From Coriobacteriales bacterium (GTDB lineage: Bacteria; Actinomycetota; Coriobacteriia; Anaerosomatales; JACRBU01): a DNA stretch of 41,208 nt. Location: positions 1-41,208 of the forward strand of contig JACRBU010000171.1 in the NCBI GenBank assembly GCA_016213085.1, read 5' to 3'. The position numbers and the translations under genes were made by a program. The notes under the pieces were generated by a model that was not told the DNA's origin, did not search any database, and saw nothing but the letters and a program-made list of their open reading frames with translations. This document shows positions 7,659 through 28,935 of this stretch, one piece after another (position 1 is the stretch's first letter; each line of letters opens with the position of its first letter).

Positions 7659-7671
7659 AGGGAGATTGCAG

Positions 7672-9685: not shown

Positions 9686-9688
9686 CCG

Positions 9689-11059
9689 GTGAACAACTCG
9701 CGCACCACGCTCGCTCGGCGTCTTGCGGTCGCGTTCGCGGCCGTGGCTGCGATGACCGCGCTCTTGACGGCGGTCCTTGTGTCCGTGTCGTGGGACGTAC
9801 AGTTCGACCGCTACATCCGCAGCAATCTCGAGAGCGTGGCTCAGAGCTGGGCGCAGGTATTCGCTAGCGGCTACCAGCAAACCGGCACGTGGGAGGGCGG
9901 ATGGCTCGCCAACGTTCCGAGGTTCGGCATGATGCGCGGCGGCATCGGACTCGAACTCCTCGACCAGAACGGTCGGGTACTCATGCAAGACCTCGGGTTC
10001 CAGCGCTATTTGACCGGGGGGCCGGGTCAGCTTCAGCAGCCTGAGGGGCCGGTGGTCGAGACCCCGGTGCTGGTTGACAACCAGATCGTCGGCACCGTGC
10101 GCGTCTGGTCTCCAAGTACTGGACGCCTCCAAAGCGACATCGACGAGCGTTTCAGACGCGCCGCGCTCTGGGCGCTCGGAACCGCCGCCCTGCTCGCAGT
10201 CGCGCTCGCGACAGCGGTCGGTGTCTGGTACGCGCGCCGCGTCACGCGGCCGATCCTGCGCATCACCGAAACGGCCCAGGCCCTTCGCAGCGGCAACGAG
10301 CACGCCCGAACGAACATGGTCGGCGAAGACGAAGTCGGCTTGCTTGCGAAGACCTTCGATGAGATGGCCGATGCCATCGAGGCCGACCGCGAACTGGAAC
10401 GTCGCCTCACGGGAGACGTCGCGCACGAACTTCGCACGCCCCTCCAGGCGATACAGGCCACCGTCGAGGCGATGCAGGACGGCGTGCTCCCAGCCGATCC
10501 CGAGCGTCTCGAGGTCGTCCGGAACGAGACCGTCAGACTCGGCAGGCTCGCCGACGGGATCCTCGAATTGACTCGGCTCGAGCGCGGTTCGGTGCCCTTC
10601 TCGATGCAGCGCATCGACGTGGCGACGCCGGTGCGCGCCGCAGCTGATACCCATCGTGCGCTGATGGAGTCGCTGGATCTCGTGATGACCGTCGACATCG
10701 TCGAAGGACTTCACGTGATGGGCGACGACGAGCGCCTGCGCCAGGCTCTCGGCAACTTGCTCAGCAATGCCGCCCGATACACGCCCGAAGGCGGGCGCGT
10801 GGAGGTCTCGGTTCGCAAAGAGACGGATCAAGCGGTCATCACCGTTGCCGACACGGGAATCGGCATCGCCGAACAGGACTTGCCGAGGGTGTTCTCGAGG
10901 TTCTGGCGCGCTGACGAGGCTCGCTCGCGCGCCACCGGTGGCCTGGGAATCGGGCTGTCGGTCGTCAAGGAGATCGTCGAGCGGCACCACGGGACGATCG
11001 GCGCGCGGCGACGCGATGGCGACGGGAGCGTGTTCTCGATCCGACTTCCGCTCGCGTGA
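9689..11059 (+). CDS. Sensor histidine kinase (2 TM, HAMP, HisKA, HATPase_c)
   Basis: It starts 4 nt after the regulator's stop. The H-box is 'VAHELRTPL', the N-box 'LLSNAARYTPEGG', and the G-boxes 'DTGIGI' and 'GGLGIGLSVV'. Confidence 0.9.
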   Translation: MNNSRTTLARRLAVAFAAVAAMTALLTAVLVSVSWDVQFDRYIRSNLESVAQSWAQVFASGYQQTGTWEGGWLANVPRFGMMRGGIGLELLDQNGRVLMQDLGFQRYLTGGPGQLQQPEGPVVETPVLVDNQIVGTVRVWSPSTGRLQSDIDERFRRAALWALGTAALLAVALATAVGVWYARRVTRPILRITETAQALRSGNEHARTNMVGEDEVGLLAKTFDEMADAIEADRELERRLTGDVAHELRTPLQAIQATVEAMQDGVLPADPERLEVVRNETVRLGRLADGILELTRLERGSVPFSMQRIDVATPVRAAADTHRALMESLDLVMTVDIVEGLHVMGDDERLRQALGNLLSNAARYTPEGGRVEVSVRKETDQAVITVADTGIGIAEQDLPRVFSRFWRADEARSRATGGLGIGLSVVKEIVERHHGTIGARRRDGDGSVFSIRLPLA

Positions 11060-11662: not shown

Positions 11663-12619
11663 TTGGTCTACGCTCTGGGGACAATCGGTTTCATTCTGCT
11701 GTTCGCCGGCGGGGAACTCCTCGTCCGGGGCGCGGTGGGCATCTCCAAAAGGCTCGGCCTCTCGGAGTTCCTCATCGGGCTGACGGTCGTGGGGTTCGCG
11801 ACGTCCGCTCCGGAGCTGTTCGTTTCGGGCAAGGCAGCGTTGGACGGACTCCCGAGCCTGGCGGTCGGCAACGTCGTCGGCTCAAACATCGCGAACCTCT
11901 CGCTCGTGCTCGGCATCGCGTCGCTCATCAGACCCGTGCGCTTCGACCGCTCCGACATCCGCCCGGACGCGATGATGATGCTCGCCTCGACCGTCGCTCT
12001 CGTCGCCCTGGGTTTCCTCGGCTGGATCGGGCGCCTTGCAGGCCTGTTCTTCGTCGTCGCTCTCGTCGCCTACGTCGGCTATTCGTACCGGACGGAGACC
12101 GCCCGAGGTACGGCCGAAGAAGATTGGCGCGATGACGAAGTGGAGGAGTTCGAGCCGGCCCCGCCGTTCGGGCCTTCGGTGCTGTTCGTCGTGGTGGGCG
12201 TGATCGCGATGCTCGCGGGAGCCAACTGGATGGTCAGCGGCGCCACGGAGATCGCTCGCGCGTTCGGCGTCTCCGAAGCGGTCGTCGGCTTGACGGTCGT
12301 CGCCCTGGGCACGTCGCTGCCGGAGATCGCGACCTCGGTGGTAGCTGCGGTCCGTGGGAGTTGTGACGTCGCCGTCGGTAACGTACTCGGGTCCAACATC
12401 TACAACATCCTTCTGATCCTGGGGCTGACCGGCATGATCAGCCCGGTCTCCATAGCAGCGGAGATCGCCCGCTTCGACCTGCCGATACTTCTGGCGCTCT
12501 CGGTCGTGGTCGTGGCGCTGCTTATGACCACGGGACGCCTAAGACGAGGAACCGGGATGGTGCTCTGCGCGGTCTACGCGAGCTACGTGGGCGTTCTGTA
12601 TGCGACCTCAGTGCTCTGA
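11663..12619 (+). CDS. CaCA-family Ca2+/Na+ (cation) antiporter, YrbG-like
   Basis: It carries two alpha-repeats: 'GFATSAPELFVS...GNVVGSNIANLSLVLG' and 'GTSLPEIATS...GNVLGSNIYNILLILG'. The start is a TTG. Confidence 0.85.
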   Translation: MVYALGTIGFILLFAGGELLVRGAVGISKRLGLSEFLIGLTVVGFATSAPELFVSGKAALDGLPSLAVGNVVGSNIANLSLVLGIASLIRPVRFDRSDIRPDAMMMLASTVALVALGFLGWIGRLAGLFFVVALVAYVGYSYRTETARGTAEEDWRDDEVEEFEPAPPFGPSVLFVVVGVIAMLAGANWMVSGATEIARAFGVSEAVVGLTVVALGTSLPEIATSVVAAVRGSCDVAVGNVLGSNIYNILLILGLTGMISPVSIAAEIARFDLPILLALSVVVVALLMTTGRLRRGTGMVLCAVYASYVGVLYATSVL

Positions 12620-13037: not shown

Positions 13038-13943
13038 GTGCCGCAAACCCCGCTTCGCCCTGACGCCCAGGGCAAAGTCCGCGACATCTACGATCTCGGC
13101 GACCGCCTCTTGCTCGTCGCGTCAGACCGCATAAGCGCATTCGACGTCGTGCTTCCAGATCCGATCCCGTTCAAGGGAGAGGTGCTGACGAAGCTCTCGT
13201 TGTTCTGGTTCGATCTTCTCGGATCGACCGTCCCGAACCACTTCCTCACCGCGGACGTGTCGACCCTGCCCGCCGAGTTCGAGCCGCACCTTCCCTGGCT
13301 CCGGGGTCGTTCGATGATGGTGAAAAAGGCGCAGGTCTTCCCGGTGGAGTGCATCGTTCGCGGCTACCTCGCAGGCAGCGGCTGGAAGGAGTACCGGCAG
13401 CAGGGCACCGCCTGTGGAATCGGCCTGCCGCCGGGGCTTAGGGAGTCCAGCCGTCTCGATGAGCCGATCTTCACGCCTTCCACGAAGGCCGAGATCGGCG
13501 ATCACGACGAGAACATCAGCTTCGATCGCGCCGCCGAGATCGTCGGTCCCGATGCCGCCCGTCGCCTGCGTGACGCCTCGATCGCCGTCTACTCTCGAGC
13601 CCGCGAACACGCTGCCGAGCGCGGCATCATCATCGCCGACACCAAGTTCGAGTTCGGGACGATAGACGGCGAGATCACGCTCGTCGACGAGGTGCTCACG
13701 CCCGACTCCAGCCGCTTCTGGCCCGCCGACGATTACGAGCCAGGCCGCGCCCAGGCGAGCTTCGACAAGCAGTTCGTTCGTGATTGGCTCGAGGCCGCGG
13801 GCTGGGACAAGCGCCCGCCGGCGCCGACCCTGCCCGACGACGTTCGGGAAGCGACCTCGGAGAAGTACATCGCCGCCTACGAGATGATCACCGGTCAGGA
13901 CTTCGTTCCCGAGGGCGCCCCGATGCCCCAGACGGAGAGCTAG
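13038..13943 (+). CDS. purC: Phosphoribosylaminoimidazole-succinocarboxamide (SAICAR) synthase
   Basis: AAGGAG lies upstream of the GTG. The translation has 'GKVRDIYD...LLLVASDRISAFDV', 'IADTKFEFG' and 'DEVLTPDSSRFW'. Confidence 0.95.
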   Translation: MPQTPLRPDAQGKVRDIYDLGDRLLLVASDRISAFDVVLPDPIPFKGEVLTKLSLFWFDLLGSTVPNHFLTADVSTLPAEFEPHLPWLRGRSMMVKKAQVFPVECIVRGYLAGSGWKEYRQQGTACGIGLPPGLRESSRLDEPIFTPSTKAEIGDHDENISFDRAAEIVGPDAARRLRDASIAVYSRAREHAAERGIIIADTKFEFGTIDGEITLVDEVLTPDSSRFWPADDYEPGRAQASFDKQFVRDWLEAAGWDKRPPAPTLPDDVREATSEKYIAAYEMITGQDFVPEGAPMPQTES

Positions 13944-14684: not shown

Positions 14685-15365
14685 ATGATCCGCTTCGCTG
14701 TCGTCGTCTTTCCCGGCTCGAACTGCGAGCAGGACGTCGTGTGGGCCGCTCGCTTCCTTGGCCACGAGGCCGAGTACGTGTGGCACGGCGACACTTCACT
14801 CGAGGGCTTCGACGCGGTGGTGCTGCCCGGCGGATTCAGCTACGGCGACTATATCCGGACCGGCGCCGTCGCGCGCTTCAGCCCCATCATGTCGGAGGTC
14901 GCCCGCTTCGCGGAGCGCGGCGGGCCCGTGATGGGCATCTGCAACGGTTTCCAGATCCTCACCGAGGCGCACCTGCTGCCCGGTGCCCTGCTCCGGAACA
15001 AAGGCCTCAGGTTCATCTGCAGAGAAGTAGCGCTCCGCATGGAGGAATCCGTCTGCCAGTGGCATGACATCGCTCCCGGGACGATCGTCAACATCCCCAT
15101 CAACCATAACGAGGGCAACTACATCTGCGATTCCGAGACCCTCGACCAGCTTCGCACCAACGGCCAGATCGTGCTTCGGTATGCCGAGCCCGGCGGCGCC
15201 CCGAATGGTGCGCTCGACGACATCGCGGGTATCTGCAACGAGCGTGGCAACGTGTTCGGCCTCATGCCCCATCCCGAGCGGGTGGTCGATCCGGCAGTGG
15301 GGGGCACCGACGGACAGCCGTTCTTCACCGCGATCGTCAATCGGATCGCCGAGGTGGCCGGGTAG
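14685..15365 (+). CDS. purQ: FGAM synthase glutaminase subunit PurQ
   Basis: The translation has 'FPGSNCEQD', 'LPGGFSYGDY', 'GICNGFQIL' (catalytic Cys) and 'MPHPER'. Confidence 0.95.
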   Translation: MIRFAVVVFPGSNCEQDVVWAARFLGHEAEYVWHGDTSLEGFDAVVLPGGFSYGDYIRTGAVARFSPIMSEVARFAERGGPVMGICNGFQILTEAHLLPGALLRNKGLRFICREVALRMEESVCQWHDIAPGTIVNIPINHNEGNYICDSETLDQLRTNGQIVLRYAEPGGAPNGALDDIAGICNERGNVFGLMPHPERVVDPAVGGTDGQPFFTAIVNRIAEVAG

Positions 15366-15430
15366 CACCCGCGAACGGACCTCCGCGCGGCCGACGTGAA
15401 CGGGTTCCAGTGCGCTGGAAGGACGTGCGA

Positions 15431-15856
15431 GTGCATCAGAGCATCGACCTCGGAGGACCGGTTATCTGGTTCTTTTACGCGGTGTCGGGGGTCGCGATCG
15501 CCGGAGCCCTCTACCAGCTGATCGATGTTGCCCGGCGACGAGACGTCGACTACGGCACGTGGGGGCGCGCGGTCTGGATGCCCATCCCGCTCGCGTTCAC
15601 GTTCGGACTGCTCGCGACGCTTATCGGAGGCGTCCTTGGGTTCGTGCCGGTGACCACGCCGCTGTACGGCGGCTTCCTGTTCGTCATCATGATCGCCAAT
15701 CTCGTGCAGCTTCCCGTATACCTGTTACGCGTCACGTACCCTACCCCCCGCCGCGCGATCGAGCGGGCCAACAATGCTGGGGAGTCGGCGCCCGACTGGG
15801 CGTGCGACGCCCTCGATCAGCGGGACTGTGACAGTGTGCGGGCTCGGCAGGACTGA
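15431..15856 (+). CDS. Hypothetical polytopic membrane protein
   Basis: There are three or four hydrophobic helices. I prefer GTG 15431 (GGAAGGA 7 nt upstream) over the track start at 15410. Confidence 0.4.
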   Translation: MHQSIDLGGPVIWFFYAVSGVAIAGALYQLIDVARRRDVDYGTWGRAVWMPIPLAFTFGLLATLIGGVLGFVPVTTPLYGGFLFVIMIANLVQLPVYLLRVTYPTPRRAIERANNAGESAPDWACDALDQRDCDSVRARQD

Positions 15857-15992: not shown

Positions 15993-16661
15993 ATGGGCGA
16001 GATGCACGTGGTGATCGGGGGATACGGCCGAGTCGGTCGCACCCTGGCGTTGGAACTCGAATCCCAAGGCCACAGCGTCGCCGTCATCGATCACAGCCTC
16101 ACCGCGTTCGAGGACTTGGACGACGGTTTCGTCGGGGCGAAGATCATCGGCACCGTCTTCGACCGCGGCACGCTCGAGGCCGCGGGAATCGAGCGTGCCG
16201 ACGTGTTCGCCGCGGTGACAAGTGGCGACAACTCGAACATCGTTGCGGCACGGGTCGCTCGCGAGGAGTACGGGGTCACCCGAGTCGTCGCACGGATCTT
16301 CGACCCGCGCCGCGCCGAGATCTACCGCAACCTCGGTATCCCGACGATCGCCAGCGTGTCGTGGACGAGCGCCCGGCTCGCCGACATGATCGCCCACCCT
16401 GGGATCGAGAGCGTCTATCAGTTCGGCAATGGCGAAGTGGTCCTGGTCGAGGTCGCCGCCTCCGACGGACTGTCCGGACGCACCATCGCCGACATCGAGG
16501 GGAGCGAGCCCGTTCAAGTCGCGAGCGTCATGAGGGCGGGTGGGGCCATCCTGCCTTCGGCGAGCTTCGTCGTCGAGCAGGACGATGCCGTCTACCTCAG
16601 CGTGAGCCGTGAGAACCTCGCGGAGCTGGTGGAGCGCTTCACACGAAGGGACCCCTCATGA
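15993..16661 (+). CDS. trkA: TrkA/KtrA-type RCK protein (TrkA_N + TrkA_C), pair 1 member A
   Basis: 'VVIGGYGRVGRTLALEL' is a Rossmann GxGxxG motif, followed by 'VTSGDNSNIVAA'. The C-terminal RCK_C segment is 'LSGRTIADIE...VYLSV'. An alternative ATG lies at 16002. Confidence 0.85.
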   Translation: MGEMHVVIGGYGRVGRTLALELESQGHSVAVIDHSLTAFEDLDDGFVGAKIIGTVFDRGTLEAAGIERADVFAAVTSGDNSNIVAARVAREEYGVTRVVARIFDPRRAEIYRNLGIPTIASVSWTSARLADMIAHPGIESVYQFGNGEVVLVEVAASDGLSGRTIADIEGSEPVQVASVMRAGGAILPSASFVVEQDDAVYLSVSRENLAELVERFTRRDPS

Positions 16662-17332
16662 GGCTCCTCATCGTCGGTGGCGGCAAGACGGGCACCTATC
16701 TCGTTCGGAAGCTCCGGGGCGAGCACGAGATAACCGTGATCGAAGAGCGCTCCGACCACGCGGAGCTCTTTCGGCGGCACGTGCCGGACGTGACGATCCT
16801 GCGCGGTGACGGGTGCGAGCCGAACGTGCTCGAGCGCGCGGGCATCATCGACGTCGACTTAGTCGCAGCGCTCACCGGCGACGACGAGGACAACCTCGTC
16901 GTGTCGCTGCTCTCGAAGCAGACCTTCGGCGTGCCTCTGGTGTTCGCTCGCTGCAACCATCCGGACAACGAGTGGCTCTTCAACCGGAAGTGGGGCGTCG
17001 ACGTCGTCGTCTCGACCGCGAGCGTCATCGAGAGCCTCGTGCGCAAGGAAGTCCTCACCGGTGACACGGTCACGCTGCTGCAGATACACGCGGGCGACTT
17101 CGTGATCGACCAGCTCACGCTGCCCGAGGGAGCGAGCTCTGTCGGAAGGTCCATCGCGGAGCTGGAGCTGCCCGACAAGTCGCGCGTCATCACGATCACC
17201 TCGGCGGGCGAGGTCGACGTTCCGACGGGGGCGGCAGTACTTCGCAAGGGCGACGAGCTGCTGATCGTGACGCGCCCTGAGGACGAAGGCGCGCTGAGGC
17301 GGGCCTTCGGGGTGGAGGGGGAACTCCGCTGA
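16658..17332 (+). CDS. trkA: TrkA/KtrA-type RCK protein, pair 1 member B
   Basis: It shares an ATGA overlap with the preceding gene (16658-16661). The translation has 'LLIVGGGKTGTYLVRKL', 'LTGDDEDNLVVSLL' and the RCK_C segment 'SVGRSIAELELP...DELLIV'. Confidence 0.85.
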   Translation: MRLLIVGGGKTGTYLVRKLRGEHEITVIEERSDHAELFRRHVPDVTILRGDGCEPNVLERAGIIDVDLVAALTGDDEDNLVVSLLSKQTFGVPLVFARCNHPDNEWLFNRKWGVDVVVSTASVIESLVRKEVLTGDTVTLLQIHAGDFVIDQLTLPEGASSVGRSIAELELPDKSRVITITSAGEVDVPTGAAVLRKGDELLIVTRPEDEGALRRAFGVEGELR

Positions 17333-17430: not shown

Positions 17431-20331
17431 GTGGAGATGAGCGAGTTCACGGAAGGGTGCACCGGCAAGGAGTGCTCGCTGCTCCCGCCTTCCGCTGTGT
17501 TCGACTCGCTGGTGACCACCGAGTCCGGACTGACGTCGAGCGAAGCGGCCGACCGCCTCGAGCGCTTTGGCGCGAATGAGATTCGCGAGGTCAAGGGCAA
17601 GCCGATCATCCTGAAGTTCCTCGAGAACTTCTATCACCTCTTCGCGATCATGTTGTGGGTCGGCGGCATCCTGTCGTTCGTCGGTGGAATGCCCCAGCTC
17701 GGATGGGCCATCTTCGCGGTCATCTTCATCAACGCGATCTTCTCGTTCTGGCAGGAGTTCAAGGCAGAGAAGGCCACCGAGGCCCTCAAGCGCCTTATTC
17801 CGAGGAACGTGAAGGTCATCCGTGACGGCCAGACGAAGCAGATCTCCGCAGTCGACCTGGTTCCCGGCGATCTGATGGTCCTTGAGGAGGGCGATGCGAT
17901 ATCCGCTGATGCTCGCCTCATCGAGGAGTTCGAGCTACGAACGAACAACGCAACGCTTACCGGTGAGTCCGAACCCGTGCGCAAGAGCGCGACGCCCCAT
18001 GAGAAGCAGGGGCTGACCGAGATCGAGATGCCGAACCTCGTTTTCGCTGGGACCTCGGTCGCATATGGCGGAGGTAAGGCGGTCGTGTACGCGACCGGGA
18101 TGCAGACGCAGTTCGGCAAGATCGCGGAGTTGACCCAGAACGTCGAGACCGAACTCAGTCCGCTCCAGAAGGAGATGAGCAAGGTCGTCCAGCTCGTCGC
18201 GATCTTGGCCACCGCATTGGGCGTGGCCTTCTTCCTGCTTGGCTACTACGTTGTCGGGCTCGGGCTGATGGAAGGGTTCGTCTTCGCCGTCGGCATCATC
18301 GTCGCCAATGTCCCCGAGGGGCTGCTTCCGACCGTGAGCCTCTCGCTGGCGATGGGTGTGCAGCGGATGGCGGGCCGCAACGCGCTCATCAAGAAGCTCT
18401 CGTCTGTGGAGACCCTCGGCAGTACCACGGTCATCTGCACTGATAAGACCGGTACGCTCACGAAGAACGAGATGACCGTCAAGGACCTCTGGGTCGACGG
18501 GCAGCACATCGAGGTGGCTGGCGGGGGCTACGAACCGCAAGGCGGCTTTTCGCACGCGGGCGAGCCGCTCACCGAGCGGCAGCGCGACGCGCTCGAACTG
18601 CTGATGCGATCCGCTGCGTTGTGCAACAACGCGCGCCTCATCGAGCCGGATTCCAGTGAAGGTTCGTGGACGATACTCGGCGATCCTACCGAAGCGGCCC
18701 TGTTGGTGGCAGCGAAGAAGGCCGGGTTCGACTACGAGTCGGAGTTGGAGCGCAACCGGCGCATTTTCGAGCTCCCCTTCGATTCCGTACGCAAGCGGAT
18801 GACGACGATCCACATGCACAAGTTCGCGCGCATCGGCTACGTCAAAGGCGCGCCCAAGGAAGTCATCGACCTGTGCACGAAAGTCGCGATTCCCGATGGC
18901 ATCGTGCCCATGGACGAGTCGTTCCGCGAGAAGGCCGTCGCGCAGAACGATGCGTTCGCCAGAGACGGGCTCCGTGTGCTGGCGATGGCGTATCGGCCCA
19001 TCCAAGACGACGAAGACGAGTACTCACCCCTGGTGACCGAGAAGGACCTGGTGTTCGTCGGATTGATGGCGATGATGGATCCACCCCGAGACGAGGTTCG
19101 TGAGGCGGTCCATCAATGCCACACCGCGGGCATCCGGATCATCATGATCACGGGAGACTACGGACTCACCGCTGAATCGATCGCACGACGGATCGGCATC
19201 GTGCAGGGCGACGCCAGAATCATCACGGGCAACGAGCTCAACCGAATAGAACTCCCGGAGCTTGAGGCTGCGCTCGCGGGAGGAGAGGTCTTGTTCGCGC
19301 GCGTTTCGCCCGAGCACAAGATGCAGATCGCCAAGGCACTCAAGGAGATGGGGAACGTCGTCGCGATGACTGGCGACGGTGTCAACGACGCGCCCGCGCT
19401 CAAGGTCGCGGATATCGGGGTCGCGATGGGAATCGCGGGCACCGACGTGGCCAAGGAAGCGGCGGACATGATCCTTACCGACGACAACTTCGCAAGCATC
19501 GTGCACGCGATCGAGGAAGGCCGCGCCGTCTTCGACAATATCCGGCGGTTCGTCGGCTACATCTTCACGAGCAACATCCCGGAGATCGTGCCCTTCCTCC
19601 TGATGGTCATGTTCCGAATCCCGTTGGCCCTGACCGTCATGCAGATCCTGGCGATCGACCTGGGGACCGATATGATTCCGGCGCTAGCCCTCGGAACGGA
19701 GGCGCCCGAGCCGGGAATCATGCAAAGGCCTCCGCGACCACGCAAGGAGCGGCTGCTCAACAAAGGCATCCTGATTCGCTCGTACCTCTTCCTCGGAGTG
19801 ATCCAGGCTGCCGTCTGCATGCTGGCGTTCTTCTTCCTGTACTGGGTGAACGGCTGGCGGCCCGGCATGGACATGTTCGCGTTCGGGGAGATCGCTGTCG
19901 CTGGATCGACCGTCTACATCCTGGCGACGACGATGACGCATGGCGCGGTGATGACCACTCAGATCGGTAACGGCTTCGCGCAGCGGACCAACGTGCAGTC
20001 GGTGTTCAAGGTCGGGTTCTTCTCGAACCGCTTCCTCCTGTGGGGCATTCTCATCGAGATCATCATGTTCGCGGCACTCGTCTATGTGCCGGGGCTTGCG
20101 GGCGTGTTCCATCACGGACCGATCAACCTGTGGCCGGACTGGGCGTTCCTGTTCATGCTCGCCCCGACGCTTCTCGTTGCGGACGAGATTCGGAAGTTCT
20201 TCGTGCGGAGACGTCTCGCGAAAACGGCGGAAGTCATGGAGACTGATGGAGCGCAGGCCGCGATGGCCAACGTCGCGCACGCGGTGTCGGCGGCGGCCGA
20301 ACCGGCAGCGATCGAGGAGGGCACGACGTGA
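17431..20331 (+). CDS. P-type cation-transporting ATPase, P2 class with Na+,K+/H+,K+-ATPase-alpha-like ion-site motifs
   Basis: The core motifs are 'LTGESEPV', 'ICTDKTGTLTKNEMTV', 'MITGDYGLTA' and 'TGDGVNDAPALK'. TM4 reads 'VANVPEGLLPTVSLSLA', TM5 'YIFTSNIPEIVPFL' and TM6 'LAIDLGTDMIPALALGTE'. The start is GTG 17431 or ATG 17437. Confidence 0.9.
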   Translation: MEMSEFTEGCTGKECSLLPPSAVFDSLVTTESGLTSSEAADRLERFGANEIREVKGKPIILKFLENFYHLFAIMLWVGGILSFVGGMPQLGWAIFAVIFINAIFSFWQEFKAEKATEALKRLIPRNVKVIRDGQTKQISAVDLVPGDLMVLEEGDAISADARLIEEFELRTNNATLTGESEPVRKSATPHEKQGLTEIEMPNLVFAGTSVAYGGGKAVVYATGMQTQFGKIAELTQNVETELSPLQKEMSKVVQLVAILATALGVAFFLLGYYVVGLGLMEGFVFAVGIIVANVPEGLLPTVSLSLAMGVQRMAGRNALIKKLSSVETLGSTTVICTDKTGTLTKNEMTVKDLWVDGQHIEVAGGGYEPQGGFSHAGEPLTERQRDALELLMRSAALCNNARLIEPDSSEGSWTILGDPTEAALLVAAKKAGFDYESELERNRRIFELPFDSVRKRMTTIHMHKFARIGYVKGAPKEVIDLCTKVAIPDGIVPMDESFREKAVAQNDAFARDGLRVLAMAYRPIQDDEDEYSPLVTEKDLVFVGLMAMMDPPRDEVREAVHQCHTAGIRIIMITGDYGLTAESIARRIGIVQGDARIITGNELNRIELPELEAALAGGEVLFARVSPEHKMQIAKALKEMGNVVAMTGDGVNDAPALKVADIGVAMGIAGTDVAKEAADMILTDDNFASIVHAIEEGRAVFDNIRRFVGYIFTSNIPEIVPFLLMVMFRIPLALTVMQILAIDLGTDMIPALALGTEAPEPGIMQRPPRPRKERLLNKGILIRSYLFLGVIQAAVCMLAFFFLYWVNGWRPGMDMFAFGEIAVAGSTVYILATTMTHGAVMTTQIGNGFAQRTNVQSVFKVGFFSNRFLLWGILIEIIMFAALVYVPGLAGVFHHGPINLWPDWAFLFMLAPTLLVADEIRKFFVRRRLAKTAEVMETDGAQAAMANVAHAVSAAAEPAAIEEGTT

Positions 20332-20975
20332 GGATCGTCATCGGCGGGTGCGGCAGGGTCGGTGCGCTTCTGACCGCCCGGTTCGAATCGCAGGGGTACG
20401 AGGTCGCGGTCATCGACAAAGACCCGTCGAGCTTCAAGCGCCTGGGCAAGGGATTCAAAGGAGACACGGTCCGAGGCATGGTCTTCGATCGCGAGGCTCT
20501 CGATGCCGCCGGAATCGACCGCTGCGACTCGTACGTAGCTGTCACAAGTGGTGACAACTCGAACATAGTCTCCGCGACGGTGGCGCGAGACGTATTCCGC
20601 GTGCCGAAGGTCGTCGCCAGGATCTTCGATCCCCGACGCGCACAGATCTACCGGCGCCTTGGAATCCAGACGGTCTCCTCGGTGTCGTGGGCGGCGAACG
20701 AGATACTCTCGCTGGTCATGCATCAGGCGCTTGTTCGCGATGTTGTCCTGGGTGACGGTGAAGTGCAACTTGTGAAGTTCTCCGTGCCGCCTCGTCTCAC
20801 CGGGCGTACCCTCGCTGACCTTTCGAGCCCGGGAGAGCTTCTGCCCGTGGCAGTCGTACGCGGCGGACAATCGTTCATCGCGACATCGCAGGCTGAGATT
20901 CGTGAAGGCGACATCGTCGAGGTAGCCGTGCTGACGACGGCGATGGACCGATTCCAGCGCCTCATCGCTCCGTAG
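20328..20975 (+). CDS. trkA: TrkA/KtrA-type RCK protein, pair 2 member A (paralog of 15993..16661)
   Basis: Its GTG overlaps the ATPase TGA (GTGA, 20328-20331) and GAGGAGG lies 7 nt upstream. The translation has 'IVIGGCGRVGALL', 'VTSGDNSNIVSA' and 'ARIFDPRRAQIY'. Confidence 0.85.
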   Translation: MRIVIGGCGRVGALLTARFESQGYEVAVIDKDPSSFKRLGKGFKGDTVRGMVFDREALDAAGIDRCDSYVAVTSGDNSNIVSATVARDVFRVPKVVARIFDPRRAQIYRRLGIQTVSSVSWAANEILSLVMHQALVRDVVLGDGEVQLVKFSVPPRLTGRTLADLSSPGELLPVAVVRGGQSFIATSQAEIREGDIVEVAVLTTAMDRFQRLIAP

Positions 20976-20983
20976 GAGGAAGC

Positions 20984-21661
20984 ATGCAGATCGTCATCGT
21001 AGGCGGCGGGAAGCTGGGGTCCCACCTCGCGCGTCTTCTGCGTAGCAAAGGCCACGCGATCATCCTCGTGGAGATCGATTCCGATCGCTGCGACCTGCTT
21101 TCGGAGTCCATGGGCGATGTGAGACTGGTGTGCGGCGACGGCGACGAACCGTACGTCCTCGACGAAGCTGACGTACGTGCGGCCGACGCGGTGATCGCCG
21201 CCACCGGCCACGACGAGGACAACCTCGTCGTGTGTCTGCTCGCGAGGCTGGAGTACCGAGTTCCTCTCACGATCGCCCGCATCAACAACCCCCGCAACCA
21301 GTGGCTGTTCGACGAGCGGTTCGGCGTCAACGTTCCTGTGTCCACCGCCGAGGTCATCGAGGGAATAGTCGAGAAGGAAGTGTCCCTCGGCGACATCGTG
21401 ACCCTGCTCCGGCTTCAGGCGGATGACATGGCGATCGAGGAGCTGACATTGCCGGAGGACGCGCGGTCGGTCGGAAAGACCATCGCGGAGGTCGGGCTAC
21501 CGGGGAGCACGCAGGTCATGGCGATCATCTCGGAAGGGAAGATCGTCGTCCCGCGCGGCGATACCGTACTCAAGGCGGAAGACCAGCTTCTCATCCTCGC
21601 CAAGAGCGATGAGGAGAAGGCGCTACAGCGCGCATTCGGCGTGCACTCCGAGCCGAGATAG
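20984..21661 (+). CDS. trkA: TrkA/KtrA-type RCK protein, pair 2 member B (paralog of 16658..17332)
   Basis: AGGAGGA lies upstream. The translation has 'IVIVGGGKLGSHLARLL', 'ATGHDEDNLVVCLL' and the RCK_C segment 'SVGKTIAEVGLP...DQLLIL'. Confidence 0.85.
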   Translation: MQIVIVGGGKLGSHLARLLRSKGHAIILVEIDSDRCDLLSESMGDVRLVCGDGDEPYVLDEADVRAADAVIAATGHDEDNLVVCLLARLEYRVPLTIARINNPRNQWLFDERFGVNVPVSTAEVIEGIVEKEVSLGDIVTLLRLQADDMAIEELTLPEDARSVGKTIAEVGLPGSTQVMAIISEGKIVVPRGDTVLKAEDQLLILAKSDEEKALQRAFGVHSEPR

Positions 21662-21721: not shown

Positions 21722-23269
21722 ATGGACCTGAAGCGAGCGTTCTCATGGGGTGGCGGCTACGCGTTCGCGATCGGTTTGGTTGCCGTCACCATCGTCGTCT
21801 TGCTCCCATTCCGGACACTGCTGACCGCTCCGACGGCGATGCTGATGGTGGTTCCGGCAATCATCCTGATCGCACGCTTGTCGGGCATTCGCCCCGCGGC
21901 CGTTGCCTCGGTGGTCGGATTCCTTGCCCTGAACTTCCTGTTCGTGCCGCCGTACTACCGGCTCACGGTGGCCGACTACCAGGAGTGGATCGCGCTCCTC
22001 GTGTTTCTCACCGTCGCGCTTTTGATCGGGCAGCAAACCGCGCAGTTGCGCCAGAGGGAGCGATCCGCGCTAGACCGGCAGAGTGAGCTCGCGTTCCTCA
22101 ACGACCTGTCGTCTCGGATCGTGTCCGCCGACTCCGCGGTGGCGACCGCCGACTTCATCGTGCGCAGGTTGACGAGCGCACTCGGCGCCTCGCGTGCGGT
22201 GCTCTTCGTATCGCATGTCCCCGGCGAACCCATCGCGATCGCGGAAGCTGGCGCTGGGGGTTCGCCCGAGGAGCTCAGCTTCGCCGCCTGGGTCATGCGT
22301 AACAGCAAGGCCGTCGGTCTCGGTCCTCGCACGGGGGACTTTCCAGCTCCCGCATCGGTGGATCCGGGGGAGGCCGTGCCCGGTCTCGTCGCCAGAGGGA
22401 TCTACCTTCCCCTTCAGACTTCGGACTCTATCGAAGGCGTGCTGCACGTGGTTCTCGGTTCCGCTGCCCTCCAGGGGTCGACGTCGCGGCTGCTGGTCGC
22501 TGTCACGAACTTGGCCGCAGGGGCACTCGAGCGCCAGCGACTTGAGGAAAGCGCGTCCCGGATCGAAGCTCTCAAGGAAGCCGATCGGCTCAAGACGACC
22601 CTTGTCTCGTCCGTCTCCCACGAACTCAAGACACCCCTCGCCGCAGCGACCGCACGCGTCACGGGACTGATCGAAGAGGGCGGAGACCTCGCCCAGGACC
22701 GTCTGCGACAAGAGCTCGTCGCCGTCTCCGACGACCTGGGACGCCTCAACGACTCGATCGGCGACCTTCTCGACCTCTCGCGCCTGGAGTCCGACGCCTG
22801 GAGGCCACACGCTGAACCACACGAGATCGGCGACATCCTGGGGACGATGCTCTCCAGGTTCCCTGCCGAAAGGCGCGATCGCGTGCGGTTCGTCCTCCCG
22901 GAGGACCTCCCGCCGATATGCGCAGACTTCGCTCAGATCGCACGCGCGCTCTTCAACCTGGTTGAGAACGCTCTAGACTACTCGCCTTCGGGGACGTTTG
23001 TGACCGTTGGTGCCGAGTCCCGCGGTCCAGACGTCATCTCATGGGTTGAGGACGAAGGCCCAGGCGTTCCTGACGACGAGAAGAACAAGGTGTTCGAGAA
23101 GTTCTACAGAGGCCGCTGGGCGGAGTCAGCCCCAGCAGGCACCGGCCTGGGTCTTGCCATCTCCCGCGAGATCGTTCGCAACAACGCCGGCCGCATCTGG
23201 GTTGAAGACGTCAGCCCGCATGGCGCACGATTCCTTGTGGCCCTTCCGACTGCGAGCTCCAGGGGGTAA
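21722..23269 (+). CDS. kdpD: KdpD-type sensor histidine kinase lacking the N-terminal KdpD/Usp sensor (DUF4118 TM domain, GAF-like, HisKA, HATPase_c)
   Basis: It begins directly with the TM bundle ('...LLPFR..LLTAPTAMLMVVPAIILIARLSG...FLALNFLFVPPYYRLTV'). The H-box is 'SVSHELKTPL' and the G-box 'GTGLGLAISREIV'. It sits beside kdpE and kdpFABC. Confidence 0.8.
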   Translation: MDLKRAFSWGGGYAFAIGLVAVTIVVLLPFRTLLTAPTAMLMVVPAIILIARLSGIRPAAVASVVGFLALNFLFVPPYYRLTVADYQEWIALLVFLTVALLIGQQTAQLRQRERSALDRQSELAFLNDLSSRIVSADSAVATADFIVRRLTSALGASRAVLFVSHVPGEPIAIAEAGAGGSPEELSFAAWVMRNSKAVGLGPRTGDFPAPASVDPGEAVPGLVARGIYLPLQTSDSIEGVLHVVLGSAALQGSTSRLLVAVTNLAAGALERQRLEESASRIEALKEADRLKTTLVSSVSHELKTPLAAATARVTGLIEEGGDLAQDRLRQELVAVSDDLGRLNDSIGDLLDLSRLESDAWRPHAEPHEIGDILGTMLSRFPAERRDRVRFVLPEDLPPICADFAQIARALFNLVENALDYSPSGTFVTVGAESRGPDVISWVEDEGPGVPDDEKNKVFEKFYRGRWAESAPAGTGLGLAISREIVRNNAGRIWVEDVSPHGARFLVALPTASSRG

Positions 23270-23277
23270 CGAGGATC

Positions 23278-23982
23278 GTGGGCGCTCCAGAACGCAGACC
23301 GCGCGTTCTCGTCGTTGACGACGAGGAGCAGATTCGTCGAGCGCTGCGCTCGATTCTCCAGGCTCGGGCCTACGACGTCGAGCTCGCCGAGTCAGCCGAA
23401 GCTGCACTCGAAGCGACCGCAGAGCGCACGCCGGACATCGTGATCCTGGATCTGACCCTGCCCGGCATAAGCGGTCTCGAAGCAACCAAGGAACTTCGAG
23501 AGTGGTATCACGGTCCGATCATCGTGCTGTCGGTGCGTAGCGGCGATGAGGACAAGATCGCTGCGCTGGATTTCGGTGCCGACGACTACCTGACCAAGCC
23601 GTTCTCGACGGGGGAGCTACTCGCGCGCGTGCGAGCCCTTCTTCGAAGAACCGCCGGGGCCGACACGTCCGTCAACGAGATCGCCATCGGAGACGTGGCG
23701 GTCGACGCTGCTCGACGCGAGGTGCTCGTTCGAGGGGAAACCGTTCACCTGACTCGCACGGAGTTCGACATCCTCGTGCTGCTCATGCGCAATGCCGGCA
23801 GAGTCGTGACCGCCAACATGCTGCTCGAACGGGTCTGGGGGCCTGAGTACTTCGGCGACACTCAGACGCTTCGAGCCCACGTCTCGCATCTGCGGAAGAA
23901 GATCGAGCGTCCCGGTGACGTGCCTCGCCACGTCCTTACGGAACCTGGCGTCGGGTTTCGTTTCGTCGGGCCCGACGAGTAG
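23278..23982 (+). CDS. kdpE: OmpR-family response regulator KdpE
   Basis: The translation has 'RVLVVDDEEQIRRAL', 'IVILDLTLPGISG', 'IIVLSVRS', 'DDYLTKPFSTGEL' and 'LTEPGVGFRF'. It lies immediately downstream of the kdpD-type kinase. Confidence 0.85.
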   Translation: MGAPERRPRVLVVDDEEQIRRALRSILQARAYDVELAESAEAALEATAERTPDIVILDLTLPGISGLEATKELREWYHGPIIVLSVRSGDEDKIAALDFGADDYLTKPFSTGELLARVRALLRRTAGADTSVNEIAIGDVAVDAARREVLVRGETVHLTRTEFDILVLLMRNAGRVVTANMLLERVWGPEYFGDTQTLRAHVSHLRKKIERPGDVPRHVLTEPGVGFRFVGPDE

Positions 23983-24168
23983 TCGTTCGCCCTTCGGGTG
24001 GCTCGTGCGCTCGTCCGCACTCCGTGAGGTAGGAGTCCCGCGTCCCGCGCAGAAGCCAACCTTCACGGATTCTTCACAGCTTGCGCGTTCCGCTTCACAC
24101 CATCACAACAGGAGCGCTCGCATACTCACGGAGTGAGTGCGGGACGCCTACCGGCACTGGGAGTCCAC

Positions 24169-24288
24169 ATGCCAATCGTAGTACCGATACTCATGCTCGT
24201 CACGATCGCCGCCGTCGGCTTGACGTGGGTGAGCATGACCAGACGCGAGAACGGCTCGCCGTATCGCGAGCGCGAGCGGAAGCGCTAG
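24169..24288 (+). CDS. Candidate 39-aa single-TM peptide (MPIVVPILMLVTIAAVGLTWVSMTRRENGSPYRERERKR)
   Basis: This ORF falls below the track's size cutoff. GGGAG lies 5 nt upstream of the ATG. The peptide has a hydrophobic N-terminus and a basic tail, and it sits in the kdpE-kdpF spacer. Confidence 0.25.
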   Translation: MPIVVPILMLVTIAAVGLTWVSMTRRENGSPYRERERKR

Positions 24289-24329
24289 TCGGTCCGCCGG
24301 ACCGGCTGTCTTCGAATCCTGGAGGAGAG

Positions 24330-24434
24330 ATGAACGTCTTGTTCGACATGCTCGTCGTCGCCGGAGTCGCGCTGTTCCTTGGCGTGTGCATGGGCTACGT
24401 GCAGCTCGCGGATCAGGTGGTGGGTGGCCGATGA
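24330..24434 (+). CDS. Candidate 34-aa single-TM peptide (MNVLFDMLVVAGVALFLGVCMGYVQLADQVVGGR)
   Basis: A strong GGAGGAG lies just upstream. Its stop overlaps the kdpF start (ATGA, 24431-24434). Confidence 0.35.
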   Translation: MNVLFDMLVVAGVALFLGVCMGYVQLADQVVGGR

Positions 24435-24520
24435 GCGCGGACGCGATCGTCGTCGGCATCGTCGCCTTCGGCGTTCTTGTCTACCTGGTTTGGGCGCTCA
24501 TCAACCCCGAGAAGCTCTAG
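24431..24520 (+). CDS. kdpF: KdpF, small stabilising subunit of the Kdp ATPase
   Basis: The 29-aa product 'MSADAIVVGIVAFGVLVYLVWALINPEKL' matches the KdpF pattern (hydrophobic helix followed by YLxxALxxPE+). It ends 9 nt before kdpA. Confidence 0.7.
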   Translation: MSADAIVVGIVAFGVLVYLVWALINPEKL

Positions 24521-24529
24521 GGAGCTTTC

Positions 24530-26257
24530 ATGCCTGTGAACGATGTCGCGTACTTCATCGTCTACTTCGTCCTGCTCGTCGCTGCCGCCGTCCCGCTCGG
24601 CATCTACATGAAGCGGGTGTTCGAGGGTGAGCGCACGTTCGCTCATCCGGTGCTCGAGCCCGTCGAGCGCGTCGTCTATCGAGTGACCGGCGTCGATCCC
24701 GAAGGCGACATGAGCTGGACGGGCTACGCCGCCGCGCTGCTCGCCTTCACCATGGCATGCTTCGTCGTCCTTTTCGCGCTGCTGCGCTTGCAAGGGTTCC
24801 TCCCGCTGAATGCCGGGGGAGTCCCGGGGATGACGACGGCGCTCGCATTCAACACCGCCGTTTCGTTCGTCACCAACACGAACTGGCAGGCGTACGCAGG
24901 CGAGGCCAGTGCGAGCTATCTCACCCAGATGCTCGGTCTCACATGGCAGAACTTCGTTTCGGCAGCCGTGGGCATCAGTGTCGCCGTCGCGTTCGCGCGG
25001 GGCCTGACACGCTCTGTCTGCCGAGGAATCGGCAACTTCTGGGTCGACCTCGTACGGTCGCTGCTGTACGTGCTGATTCCGATCAGCCTGGTTCTTGCGC
25101 TGGTACTCGTGTCGCAGGGCGTCATTCAGAACGTGAGCCCGTTCACGTCGGTCACGACACTCGAGGGTGCGAGCCAGACGATCGCCCAGGGGCCCGTGGC
25201 CTCTCAAGAGGCGATCAAGGAACTCGGTACGAATGGCGGTGGTTTCTTCAACGCCAACTCCGCGCATCCGTACGAGAATCCGTCACCGCTGACGAACTTC
25301 CTCGAGACCTTCGCGATACTCGTGATTCCGGCGGGGCTGACGATGATGTTCGGCAAGATGGCCGGCAACATGCGGCAGGGGTGGGTGCTCCTCGCCGCGA
25401 TGTTCGTCCTGTTCGCGGTCGGCCTGACGGCGATCTACGGGCTCGAACGCGCGGGGAACCCCAATCTCGCTCGAGCCGGTGCGGACATCTCCGCCGCTGC
25501 GGACCGTCCGGGCGGCAACATGGAGGGCAAGGAGGTCCGATTCGGCCAGGCCGGGACCGCTCTGTTCGAGAACGCGACGACGGCTGCGTCCTGCGGGGCC
25601 GTGACGGCGAGCCACGACTCGATGACCCCGCTCGCGGGCGGAATGACGATGCTCAACATCGCGCTTGGCGAGGTCATCTTCGGCGGCGTGGGTGCGGGAC
25701 TGTACGGGATGCTGATCTTCGCCATCCTGTCGGTCTTCATCGCAGGGCTGATGGTCGGGCGCACGCCGGAGTACCTGGGCAAGAAGATCGGCCCCACGGA
25801 CATGAAGCTCGCGATGCTCGCGATACTTGCGCTCGAGGCAGGCATCCTCGTGATCGCGGGTATCTCGGCGGTCACGCCTTCGGCGGTGGCTTCGGTCCTC
25901 AACGCGGGGCCGCACGGGCTCACGGAGATCCTGTACGCCGCCACCTCGGCCGTGGGCAACAACGGCTCTGCCTTCGGAGGGCTGAGCGCCAACACGACCT
26001 TCTACAACGTCGCGCTCGGCATCGGCATGCTCATCGGGCGCTACCTCTTCATCGTGCCGGTTCTCGGCATCGCTGGTTCGATGGCGTGCAAGAAGGTAGC
26101 CCCGCCGACGTCCGGCACCTTCCCGACGGATGGGCCGCTGTTCACCGGTCTGCTCATCGGCGTGATCGTCATCGTCGGGGCGCTCACGTTCTTCCCTGTC
26201 TACGCCCTCGGGCCCATCGTCGAGCAGTTCATGATGAACGCCGGCACGCTGTTCTAG
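24530..26257 (+). CDS. kdpA: K+-transporting ATPase subunit KdpA
   Basis: The N-terminal 'PLGIYMKRVFEGERTF' and the internal 'FNTAVSFVTNTNWQAY', 'GTNGGGFFNANSAHPYENP' and 'AVGNNGSAFGGL' are selectivity-filter-like motifs. Confidence 0.95.
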   Translation: MPVNDVAYFIVYFVLLVAAAVPLGIYMKRVFEGERTFAHPVLEPVERVVYRVTGVDPEGDMSWTGYAAALLAFTMACFVVLFALLRLQGFLPLNAGGVPGMTTALAFNTAVSFVTNTNWQAYAGEASASYLTQMLGLTWQNFVSAAVGISVAVAFARGLTRSVCRGIGNFWVDLVRSLLYVLIPISLVLALVLVSQGVIQNVSPFTSVTTLEGASQTIAQGPVASQEAIKELGTNGGGFFNANSAHPYENPSPLTNFLETFAILVIPAGLTMMFGKMAGNMRQGWVLLAAMFVLFAVGLTAIYGLERAGNPNLARAGADISAAADRPGGNMEGKEVRFGQAGTALFENATTAASCGAVTASHDSMTPLAGGMTMLNIALGEVIFGGVGAGLYGMLIFAILSVFIAGLMVGRTPEYLGKKIGPTDMKLAMLAILALEAGILVIAGISAVTPSAVASVLNAGPHGLTEILYAATSAVGNNGSAFGGLSANTTFYNVALGIGMLIGRYLFIVPVLGIAGSMACKKVAPPTSGTFPTDGPLFTGLLIGVIVIVGALTFFPVYALGPIVEQFMMNAGTLF

Positions 26258-28919: not shown

Positions 28920-28935
28920 CGCGAGGGAGGCGGAC

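Follow-up and report, generated by a model that had tools for sequence, protein, structure and literature searches.

What does a bacterial P-type ATPase transport when its ion pocket resembles that of the animal sodium pump and the genes around it are those of potassium uptake? The question is raised by a 41,208-bp stretch of DNA from a Coriobacteriales bacterium (contig JACRBU010000171.1 of assembly GCA_016213085.1; hereafter the window), which carries on its forward strand, at 17431-20331, the gene for a P2C-like P-type ATPase that we call the pump. A first-pass annotation of this DNA had assigned to it ion-binding motifs of the Na,K/H,K-ATPase alpha type rather than of the SERCA/PMCA type, and had proposed a K+-handling role, either import or Na+/K+ exchange. 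Our analysis adds three things: the third Na+ site of the animal pump is absent, the pump forms a conserved unit with a split TrkA, and EIIA domains or KdpD/E-like regulators occur as alternatives elsewhere in the family. Judged by its residues and its genomic contexts, the pump is somewhat more probably than otherwise a beta-less, two-site, ATP-driven importer of K+ in exchange for H+ or Na+.

The open reading frame (ORF) encodes 966 amino acids from a GTG codon; the public gene call (P0001) starts at an ATG at 17437 and yields 964. The coordinates and the three transmembrane (TM) strings quoted in the first-pass annotation were exact, and the strings were recovered verbatim on the forward strand: IVANVPEGLLPTVSLSLAMGVQRMA in TM4 (residues 290-314, nucleotides 18298-18372), YIFTSNIPEIVPFL in TM5 (residues 710-723, 19558-19599) and ILAIDLGTDMIPALALGTE in TM6 (residues 739-757, 19645-19701). 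All the catalytic motifs are intact, including TGES, D338 within DKTGT, and TGDGVNDAPALK; TGDGVNDAP and the set of A, P, N and M domains are present as well, so that the protein qualifies as a generic P-type ATPase (HAD-IC), and it clears the TIGR01494 cut-off of 62.3 with 308 bits. The P2-type Pfam set is complete at five domains (Cation_ATPase_N, E1-E2_ATPase, Cation_ATPase, Hydrolase and Cation_ATPase_C), and the protein has ten predicted TM helices and a canonical cation site of its own. From its sequence, the gene looks like that of a working pump rather than a relic.

The ligand columns of the pocket were read from an alignment of 182 sequences and numbered according to the pig Na,K-ATPase (NKA) alpha1 subunit. 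The alignment comprised the window pump, 9 close homologues, 141 full-length representatives at 50% identity drawn from an exhaustive homologue search, 24 pumps read out of genomic loci and 7 references, namely human ATP1A1 (P0271), rabbit SERCA1a, the pig H,K-ATPase (HKA) ATP4A (P0301), yeast PMA1, ENA1 and PMR1, and Arabidopsis AHA2, each of which was confirmed against its named entry by exact-sequence look-up. Over positions 322-325 and 327, then 771, 772, 774, 775, 776 and 779, then 804 and 806-808, then 923 and 926, and finally 954, NKA reads VANVE / YTTSNE / DGTD / QD / E and the window pump reads VANVE / YITSNE / DGTD / QN / E. The corresponding rows are VANVE / YVTSNE / DGTD / QD / E for a homologue from Methanosarcinales (L082), VAYVE / YTTKNE / ECTD / QD / Q for HKA and VAAIE / YLSSNE / NVTD / EN / S for SERCA.

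The window pump is thus identical to NKA at E327, Y771, T774, S775, N776, E779, D804, G806, T807, D808, Q923 and E954, and along TM4 at V322, A323, N324, V325, P326 and E327. In its own numbering, the ligands (with their NKA equivalents) are E296 (E327), Y710 (Y771), T713 (T774), S714 (S775), N715 (N776) and E718 (E779) in TM4 and TM5, and D743 (D804), T746 (T807), D747 (D808), Q844 (Q923), N847 (in place of D926) and E876 (E954) from TM6 onward. The residues that define K+ sites I and II (E327, S775, N776, E779, D804 and D808) and the TM4 sequence VANVPEG are all those of NKA, and the TM5-TM6 segment (YIFTSNIPE and IDLGTDMIP, 19558-19701) holds the NKA-type ligands of both sites; the earlier statement that all acidic and polar K+ ligands are present is borne out by this comparison. 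T772 supplies a backbone carbonyl, and the Ile at this position in the pump is therefore of no concern. Position 775 is occupied by Ser instead of the tethered Lys of the H,K-ATPases, and P778 is present; site I is therefore free.

The pocket departs from that of the animal pump at Na+ site III. Among the determinants of this site, Y771, T774 and Q923 are present, whereas D926 is replaced by Asn and W924 by Ile, so that the site III determinants are absent from the window pump. The TM8 motif involved is TTQIGNGFAQRT (19954-19989, forward strand), in which Q923 is kept and Gln stands at the position of C930; its register is backed by an independent ungapped HMMER alignment that sets QIGN against QIAD within the conserved flanks GFF.NR. 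In human alpha3, the equivalent change of Asp to Asn lowers the Na+ affinity more than 100-fold and leaves the K+ affinity unchanged, and W924 is required for the formation of site III (PMC9463140, PMC13607240). With both residues replaced, an animal-type cycle of 3Na+:2K+ is unlikely for the pump. Conversion of an H,K into a Na,K pump needs S775, P778, W924 and C930 (PMC9463140, PMC13607240), of which the window pump holds the first two, with Gln at the position of the last. Studies of H,K-pump mutants suggest that once site III is destroyed and site I is free, the export step does not distinguish Na+ from H+ (PMC9463140), and for this reason we leave the exported ion of the pump as either of the two.

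The Asn at position 926 is the norm of the family and not a lesion. Within the P2C-like clade of 87 tips recovered by the trees described below, this position is Asn in 61, Ala in 11, Thr in 5 and Asp in 4, and the four carriers of Asp (NKA, HKA, L082 and P0158) all belong to the NKA subclade. The rest of the pocket is strongly conserved in the same clade: Q923 in 86 of the 87 tips, D804 and E327 in 85 each, E779 in 84 and N776 in 78, while position 808 is Asp or Glu in all of them. Asn is also the SERCA residue at the equivalent of 926. Because it prevails across the clade and occurs in SERCA, the most parsimonious view takes Asn as the ancestral residue and D926, together with the third Na+ site, as an acquisition of the methanogen/eukaryote lineage.

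How firmly can the pump be assigned to the P2C type? Full-length comparison gave nearly equal scores to different subtypes. In a search of the PDB, the best values were 576 bits for NKA alpha3 and 556 bits for LMCA1, the Ca2+ pump of Listeria. The best of the NCBIfam subtype models was TIGR01106 (ATPase-IIC_X-K) with 648.2 bits, closely followed by the PMR1-type model TIGR01522 with 637.1, and then by the Ca-ATPase model TIGR01116 with 576.8 and the P2B model TIGR01517 with 442.6; all of these lie under the curated cut-offs of the models (946.1, 798.3, 703.4 and 507.05, respectively). Classification against a curated set, as the first-pass annotation had envisaged, therefore stood only in part, in that the IIC model ranked first and its cut-off was not reached. 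BLASTP identities were likewise close together, with 35.8% to NKA over about 970 residues, 35.3% to HKA, 34.9% to PMR1, 34.8% to SERCA and 28.8% to ENA1. As the full-length scores of NKA and LMCA1, and of the IIC and PMR1-type models, were nearly equal, we discarded them for subtyping, and relied instead on searches with single segments, on the site comparison and on trees. The TM5-TM6 segment alone separated the candidates clearly (E = 1.1e-25 for NKA alpha3, 1.2e-23 for ATP12A, 1.5e-14 for SERCA1, 2.8e-9 for LMCA1 and 1.5e-6 for SPCA1); the TM4 segment alone did so weakly (1.2e-23 for NKA versus 6e-20 for LMCA1).

The trees were bootstrapped neighbor-joining (NJ) trees from Kimura, gamma (a=1 and a=2) and p distances, with a reference panel without P2B, and the membrane and cytoplasmic columns were also run as separate partitions. 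With Kimura distances over 879 columns and rooting on P3A, 172 of 200 bootstraps supported the clade of 87 tips, which unites NKA, HKA, L082, the window pump and all prokaryotic pumps with the TM6 signature D-G-T-D; SERCA, PMR1, ENA1 and the prokaryotic pumps with N-x-x-T-D fall outside it. We tested the split of the window pump, NKA, HKA and L082 from SERCA, PMR1, ENA1, PMA1, AHA2 and four prokaryotic N-x-x-T-D pumps. It was recovered by Kimura NJ in 100 of 100 replicates with all columns, again in 100 of 100 with the membrane columns and in 78 of 100 with the cytoplasmic columns, and in 99-100 of 100 with gamma or p distances. Since the cytoplasmic columns alone also recover the split, the likeness of the pump to NKA is a signal of the whole protein and not convergence of the pocket. 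This answers the earlier concern that the pump might fall among P2A (Ca2+) or P3 pumps with convergent motifs: it lies outside the references of both groups. In 95-100 of 100 bootstraps, NKA, HKA and L082 in turn formed a group without the bacterial pumps, that of the window among them, so that the pump stands outside the NKA/HKA crown group. Its place is in a large prokaryotic P2C-like radiation that is sister or paraphyletic to the Na,K/H,K-ATPase alpha subunits, and we are confident that it is P2C-like in this broad sense.

The predicted fold agrees with this placement. An AlphaFold2 model of the pump, built with 73 homologues in the input (mean pLDDT 83, pTM 0.73), was compared with the PDB by Foldseek, and the top 27 matches were all Na,K- or H,K-ATPases, with SERCA and SPCA close behind; the best were the NKA E1 states 8jfz and 8jbk (TM-score 0.75-0.76). 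The claim of a Na,K/H,K-type rather than SERCA/PMCA-type pump thus holds by residues, segment searches, fold and NJ phylogeny. The remark that such prokaryotic pumps have no beta subunit fits as well. The loop between TM7 and TM8 has 44 residues in the pump and 61 in NKA and HKA, 17 fewer, and the beta-docking motif SYGQ is absent; for these reasons we regard the pump as beta-less. No conserved single-pass partner gene was found beside the pump among the related loci. A membrane ORF of 148 amino acids at 15410-15856 was considered as a beta- or FXYD-like subunit and rejected, as it has no homologue in any related locus. At the C-terminus, DEIRKFFVRRR is kept and KETYY is absent, and the model ends in a disordered tail of about 25-35 residues.

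What, then, might control the pump? Directly behind it, on the same strand, lie two genes for RCK proteins, RCK_A (20328-20975, 215 amino acids) and RCK_B (20984-21661, 225 amino acids), both composed of TrkA_N and TrkA_C. RCK_A aligns to the N-terminal half of TrkA and RCK_B to its C-terminal half, so that the two together represent a split TrkA. The TGA stop codon of the pump overlaps the GTG start codon of RCK_A in the sequence GTGA at 20328-20331, and the Shine-Dalgarno sequence of RCK_A, GAGGAGG, is located within the 3' end of the pump gene; only 8 bp separate RCK_A from RCK_B. The pump and RCK_A are thus translationally coupled in the window, and the overlap of stop and start implies stoichiometric co-synthesis. 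A second pair, RCK1 (15993-16661) and RCK2 (16658-17332), lies upstream of the pump on the same strand with an overlap of 4 bp; RCK1 is 45% identical to RCK_A and RCK2 is 50% identical to RCK_B, while A-type and B-type copies share about 25-28%. All four RCK proteins have both TrkA domains and GxGxxG. They score under the TrkA equivalog cut-offs, because each has only half the length of TrkA.

The association of pump and RCK genes is widespread. We surveyed 80 related genomic loci, in which 76 pump genes had at least 1.5 kb of downstream sequence. In 40 of the 76, an RCK_A-RCK_B pair lay directly 3' of the pump on the same strand, at a distance of about 0-150 bp. The pair follows relatedness to the window pump: it was present in 14 of 14 relatives at 55% identity or more, in 23 of 31 at 50-55%, in 1 of 15 at 45-50% and in 2 of 16 at 38-45%. 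Carriers of the module belong to Coriobacteriia, Collinsella/Enorma, Anaerolineae/Chloroflexota, Clostridia, Thermoanaerobacterium, Bacillus marasmi, uncultured Bacilli, Geobacteraceae and Desulfomicrobium, and cultured carriers include Flexilinea flocculi, Thermoanaerobacterium butyriciformans, Bacillus marasmi, Collinsella, Enorma and Anaerocolumna jejuensis. In the reverse search, each RCK_A orthologue of at least 65% identity on the sampled long contigs came right after a pump, again overlapping it by 4 bp, and TrkH was beside none of them. No RCK pair lies within 6 kb of the pump in L082, and the homologue of S. ratti (L061) has unrelated neighbours, an aldehyde dehydrogenase gene on one side and ilvD on the other.

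In the closest relatives (L001, L027, L081 and L096), the module occurs in tandem, with the order ATPase'-RCK-RCK-ATPase-RCK-RCK, in which ATPase' is a paralogous pump. Each RCK pair is orthologous to its counterpart in the window, and it is the orthologue of RCK1 that stands in the place of RCK_A behind ATPase'. The pocket of ATPase' (3797-6616 in L001, and also in the other three) is altered to YFQTSNVAE / IDLLTDQVP / Q..N, with Leu for G806, Gln for M809 and Ala for P778, which hints at a different ion preference of this second pump. In L081, ATPase' is split into ORFs of 671 and 272 amino acids by a frameshift or by an error of long-read assembly.

Other members of the family carry different candidates for this control. 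An N-terminal PTS_EIIA_2 (PtsN-like) domain is fused to the pump in at least 5 members (among P0121, P0122, P0127, P0245, L029 at 7473-10796 and L038 at 7503-10778), with E-values of about 1e-33 in L029 and L038 and a lowest value of 2e-34. The site signature of P0121 is exactly that of the window pump. The PtsN-type phospho-histidine motif AIPHA occurs in P0122 and P0245 and is replaced by AIFHF in P0121. The context could be read for four of the EIIA-fused pumps, and all four lack an RCK pair. PtsN/EIIA-Ntr is known to regulate directly TrkA, KdpD and the K+/H+ antiporter YcgO (PMC13104625). In Collinsella, Enorma, Bacillus marasmi and a metagenome-assembled genome (MAG) of Bacillota, a response regulator and a histidine kinase are encoded directly upstream of the pump; by far the best model for the kinase is the C-terminal half of KdpD (E from 1e-60 to 1e-74), and no kdpABC was found within 8 kb of these pumps.

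In the window itself, the genes of a Kdp system adjoin the module on the forward strand. The C-terminal half of KdpD (DUF4118-HisKA-HATPase_c, 21722-23269) begins 60 bp 3' of RCK_B and is followed by a KdpE-like response regulator of the OmpR family (23278-23982), a candidate kdpF recognized by eye (24431-24520; a hydrophobic peptide of 29 amino acids, MSADAIVVGIVAFGVLVYLVWALINPEKL), kdpA (24530-26257), kdpB (26267-28339) and kdpC (28350-28919). The N-terminal half of KdpD, with the KdpD sensor domain and Usp, is a separate gene (28894-30096) that overlaps the end of kdpC by 26 bp, so that the split halves of KdpD flank kdpE-kdpFABC. The spacer between kdpE and kdpA (23983-24529) contains two further short hydrophobic ORFs (MNVLFDMLVVAGVALFLGVCMGYVQLADQVVGGR and MPIVVPILMLVTIAAVGLTWVSM) and a run of TTCAC repeats (CTTCACGGATTCTTCACAGC to GCTTCACACC), which could be a KdpE operator. 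A scan of the window for promoters and terminators gave nothing informative at 65% GC. With RCK genes, kdpD/E and kdpFABC adjoining the pump, the K+-homeostasis neighbourhood noted in the first-pass annotation is real.

K+ is proposed as the imported ion because the ligands are those of the K+-occluding sites and because four independent contextual links point to K+. The transported ions and their direction, the stoichiometry, the contact between pump and RCK proteins and the regulation by KdpDE are what we infer from these comparisons. In E1, two H+ or Na+ would bind from the cytoplasm, after which the pump would be phosphorylated on D338; in E2P, the two ions would be released outside and two K+ bound, and K+ would trigger dephosphorylation before being delivered inside. 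Such a 2:2 exchange would probably not be electrogenic, and its physiological output would be ATP-driven uptake of K+. RCK_A and RCK_B may build a ring that senses a nucleotide or a second messenger and gates the pump directly, which we regard as quite possible though short of probable, and the fused PtsN-like EIIA domain would take over the gating job of the ring in other members. In either form, the regulator would tune the pump to the K+ and energy state of the cell, and transcription of the pump would probably be tied to K+ limitation through two-component systems of the KdpD/E type.

Several observations weigh against this reading, and other explanations have to be considered with them. 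Ion selectivity cannot be read reliably from the identity of ligands, and four carboxylates could hold a divalent ion too; the full-length scores lie close to those of LMCA1 and the PMR1-type model; the bacterial radiation is poorly resolved internally in our NJ trees without a P2B reference; the sequencing runs that contain the pump sequence are DNA runs only, from a groundwater metagenome; the regions upstream of the pump, the RCK genes and kdp share nothing beyond chance-level 8-10-mers, with no operator motif common to the pump and kdp promoters; and the main route of K+ uptake in S. mutans is Trk2 and not the putative Trk1 (PMC7082836). The pump might export Ca2+ or another divalent ion, as its relatives are annotated (K01537), with NKA-like motifs that do not dictate monovalent selectivity. 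Besides the similar scores, this would be in keeping with the Asn that SERCA shares at the D926 position, with the public names of homologues that are 70-80% identical, and with a Na_Ca_ex (CaCA family) gene at 11663-12619. That gene stands just upstream of purC, and because L081 has the same layout we regard it as conserved synteny outside the K+ island; across the 80 loci, the pump has no conserved Ca-related neighbour. As to the names, JGI calls members of this one orthologous group (P0002-P0056) 'P-type Ca2+ transporter type 2C', 'magnesium-transporting ATPase (P-type)', 'Ca2+-transporting ATPase' and 'potassium/sodium efflux P-type ATPase', and four incompatible names for near-identical proteins are guesswork to which we give no weight. 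The SERCA-type Ca signature is not found in the window pump: both residues that discriminate Ca pumps from NKA are of the NKA type, with Asp (D804) at the position of SERCA N796, which is Asn in Ca pumps, and Gln (Q923) at that of SERCA E908. Moreover, SERCA, PMR1 and the prokaryotic N-x-x-T-D pumps lie across the split supported at 99-100%, and the pump scores under the cut-off of every Ca-ATPase equivalog (637 vs 798, 577 vs 703 and 443 vs 507). We therefore hold a divalent exporter to be very improbable. Extrusion of Na+ (or H+) under salt, alkaline or pH stress is harder to set aside but still unlikely. The pump would then be a functional analogue of the ENA/Na+-ATPases, K+ would be only a counter-ion or would not be transported, and the nearby K+ genes would reflect a general control of osmotic or ionic stress. 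The ligands of K+ sites I and II in E2 also bind Na+ in the E1 state of NKA, and with site III missing and site I free, the export leg would not select between Na+ and H+ (PMC9463140); some homologues of at least 70% identity carry the label 'potassium/sodium efflux P-type ATPase', and pacL and trkB of S. mutans are induced together under presumed osmotic stress (PMC2957427). On the other hand, all the conserved context belongs to the control of K+ uptake (split TrkA, KdpD/E-like kinases, kdpFABC and PtsN-like EIIA), the change D926N cuts the Na+ affinity of NKA more than 100-fold (PMC9463140, PMC13607240), and ENA1 is distant, with 29% identity and a place outside the clade.

A different doubt concerns the RCK pair and leaves room for the import of K+ by the pump. 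The pair may be an ordinary split TrkA (CeoB/CeoC-like) that serves a distant TrkH or KtrB and is merely co-transcribed with the pump, which we consider conceivable though not what we would expect. To our knowledge, RCK rings are known as regulators of channels and CPA2 antiporters only (PMC12453120). About half of the pump relatives, including those of Lactobacillaceae and S. ratti, are without an RCK pair. The strongest point in favour of a distant partner is that the window keeps RCK1-RCK2 intact without ATPase', of which no remnant was found between purQ and RCK1; RCK pairs can therefore persist without an adjacent cognate pump. In addition, workers on S. mutans have filed the arrangement trkB-trk-pacL under 'Trk1' (PMC7082836). 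Against a distant partner, neither TrkH nor KtrB was found within the window or beside the module in the relatives read, except in L087, and there TrkH has two full-length TrkA genes of its own upstream and the pump still keeps its own RCK pair. The overlap of stop and start, with the stoichiometric co-synthesis that it implies, argues in the same direction, as do the duplicated modules, which retain separate and co-diverged RCK pairs. Finally, the EIIA fusion places a K+-linked regulator covalently on the pump, and EIIA and RCK were mutually exclusive in 4 of 4 contexts.

The pump can be compared with several known systems. With the alpha subunit of animal NKA (ATP1A1) it shares, beside clade, fold and identity, TM4 VANVPEGLL, TM5 Y..TSNIPE, TM6 IDLGTD, Q923, E954 and the juxtamembrane DE(I/V)RK..(V/I)RRR; it differs in having no site III, no SYGQ or KETYY and no beta or FXYD gene, and in its coupled RCK genes. 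The H,K-ATPases (ATP4A and ATP12A) share with it the clade and the Ile at 924, and resemble it in that it is predicted to work with no site III and to move no net charge (PMC9463140). They differ from it at 775 (Lys, where the pump has Ser) and 804 (Glu, where the pump has Asp), and they neutralize D926 by an Arg at 930, whereas the pump replaces D926 itself and has Gln at 930. Archaeal NKA-like P2C pumps are known from phylogenomics and have been flagged by Palmgren as uncharacterised (PMC10654040). Like the window pump they are prokaryotic and beta-less, and L082 has the same TM4-TM6 ligands and a short loop between TM7 and TM8; in contrast, it keeps D926 and C930 and groups with the animal pumps.

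Among bacterial systems, the nearest in gene content is "Trk1 (trkB-trk-pacL)" of S. mutans, where a P-type ATPase gene lies beside two Trk genes without TrkH (PMC7082836), and where SMU_1562, an RCK_N and RCK_C protein of 221 amino acids, binds c-di-AMP (PMC12453120); pacL shares its regulation with trk/trkB. The window has the same arrangement of a P-type ATPase gene and two RCK genes with no adjacent TrkH; the likeness was drawn from the published description and not by sequence, as two published trkB primers, used as exact patterns against genomes, matched unrelated MAGs only. Published work classes this locus with the Trk systems rather than as a pump gated by RCK proteins. KdpFABC, the ATP-driven K+ uptake system under KdpDE control by K+ limitation, is encoded next to the module; its KdpB, unlike the window pump, is of the P1A type and depends on the channel-like KdpA, and the likeness of the pump to KdpB is weak (the kdpB model gives 104 bits, and tblastn 22-28% identity). 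TrkA_N, TrkA_C and GxGxxG are common to RCK_A, RCK_B and the rings of TrkAH/KtrAB, where the partner is a TrkH or KtrB channel; the partner in cis of the window RCK genes is a P-type ATPase. A full-text search of the literature for P-type ATPase, TrkA, RCK and operon returned no description of an RCK-regulated P-type pump, and no description of gating of any P-type pump by RCK or EIIA was found. The pump family and the gene adjacency had already been glimpsed; apparently undescribed are the wide spread of the module, the regulators that occur in its place and the lack of site III as a trait of the family.

A purine operon is interrupted between purQ and purL by the entire K+ cluster (purC 13038-13943, purQ 14685-15365, purL 31173-33428, and purF, purM and purN at 35961-39158). 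In the window, this slot holds the orphan RCK pair, one module and kdpDE/kdpFABC; in relatives it holds one module (L100) or two (L096, L001, L027 and L081), with or without a two-component system. With such varied cargo, the slot resembles a hot spot of K+ transport genes that is specific to this lineage. On the complementary strand, a fusion of HTH_3 with a nucleotidyltransferase (30442-31005) marks the downstream edge of the K+ island, and a protein with Schlafen/AlbA_2, HATPase_c_4 and a wHTH (39201-40571) follows the pur genes; both types are frequent in mobile or defence contexts. Elsewhere in the family, P0132 (1255 amino acids) and P0159 (1265 amino acids), two representatives of a divergent subclade with YV[ST]HNE / D[GV]ME, have C-terminal extensions of about 300 amino acids without a Pfam match, which by eye resemble tandem Usp-like alpha/beta units. 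P0234 (1706 amino acids) joins an ATPase of the heavy-metal type (HMA_2) to a complete P2-type ATPase, as a true fusion or as a read-through in gene calling. A search of prokaryotic genomes with human ATP1A1 found one genuine archaeal relative, L082, and two contigs of Neglectibacter sp. X58 (L083 and L084; 713 and 512 bp) with fragments 78-90% identical to the human protein, which are almost certainly contamination of the assembly by the mammalian host. The 90%-identity cluster that contains rabbit SERCA1a also holds many entries of SH2B adapter protein 1, probably by chaining through read-through or fused gene models.

The origin of Na,K-ATPase and the reason for its 3:2 stoichiometry are open questions, and a 2023 review listed 'what do P2C ATPases do in archaea?' among the unsolved ones (PMC10654040). 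The bacterial relatives described here constitute a large, phylum-spanning family with a full two-site K+ pocket and Asn in place of the site III aspartate, and thus offer a natural model of the state that preceded the third sodium site. That state would be a two-site, electroneutral exchanger of H+ or Na+ for K+, from which the methanogen/eukaryote lineage would have built the electrogenic 3Na+:2K+ pump through N926D, with W924 added later in animals. We offer only as a tentative proposal that both things hold at once, namely that an RCK ring or a fused EIIA domain directly gates a P-type ATPase and that the family preserves the sodium pump as it was before site III. The dedicated K+ regulators suggest a third kind of ATP-driven K+ uptake in bacteria beside Kdp, and the pump may represent a new class of RCK client.

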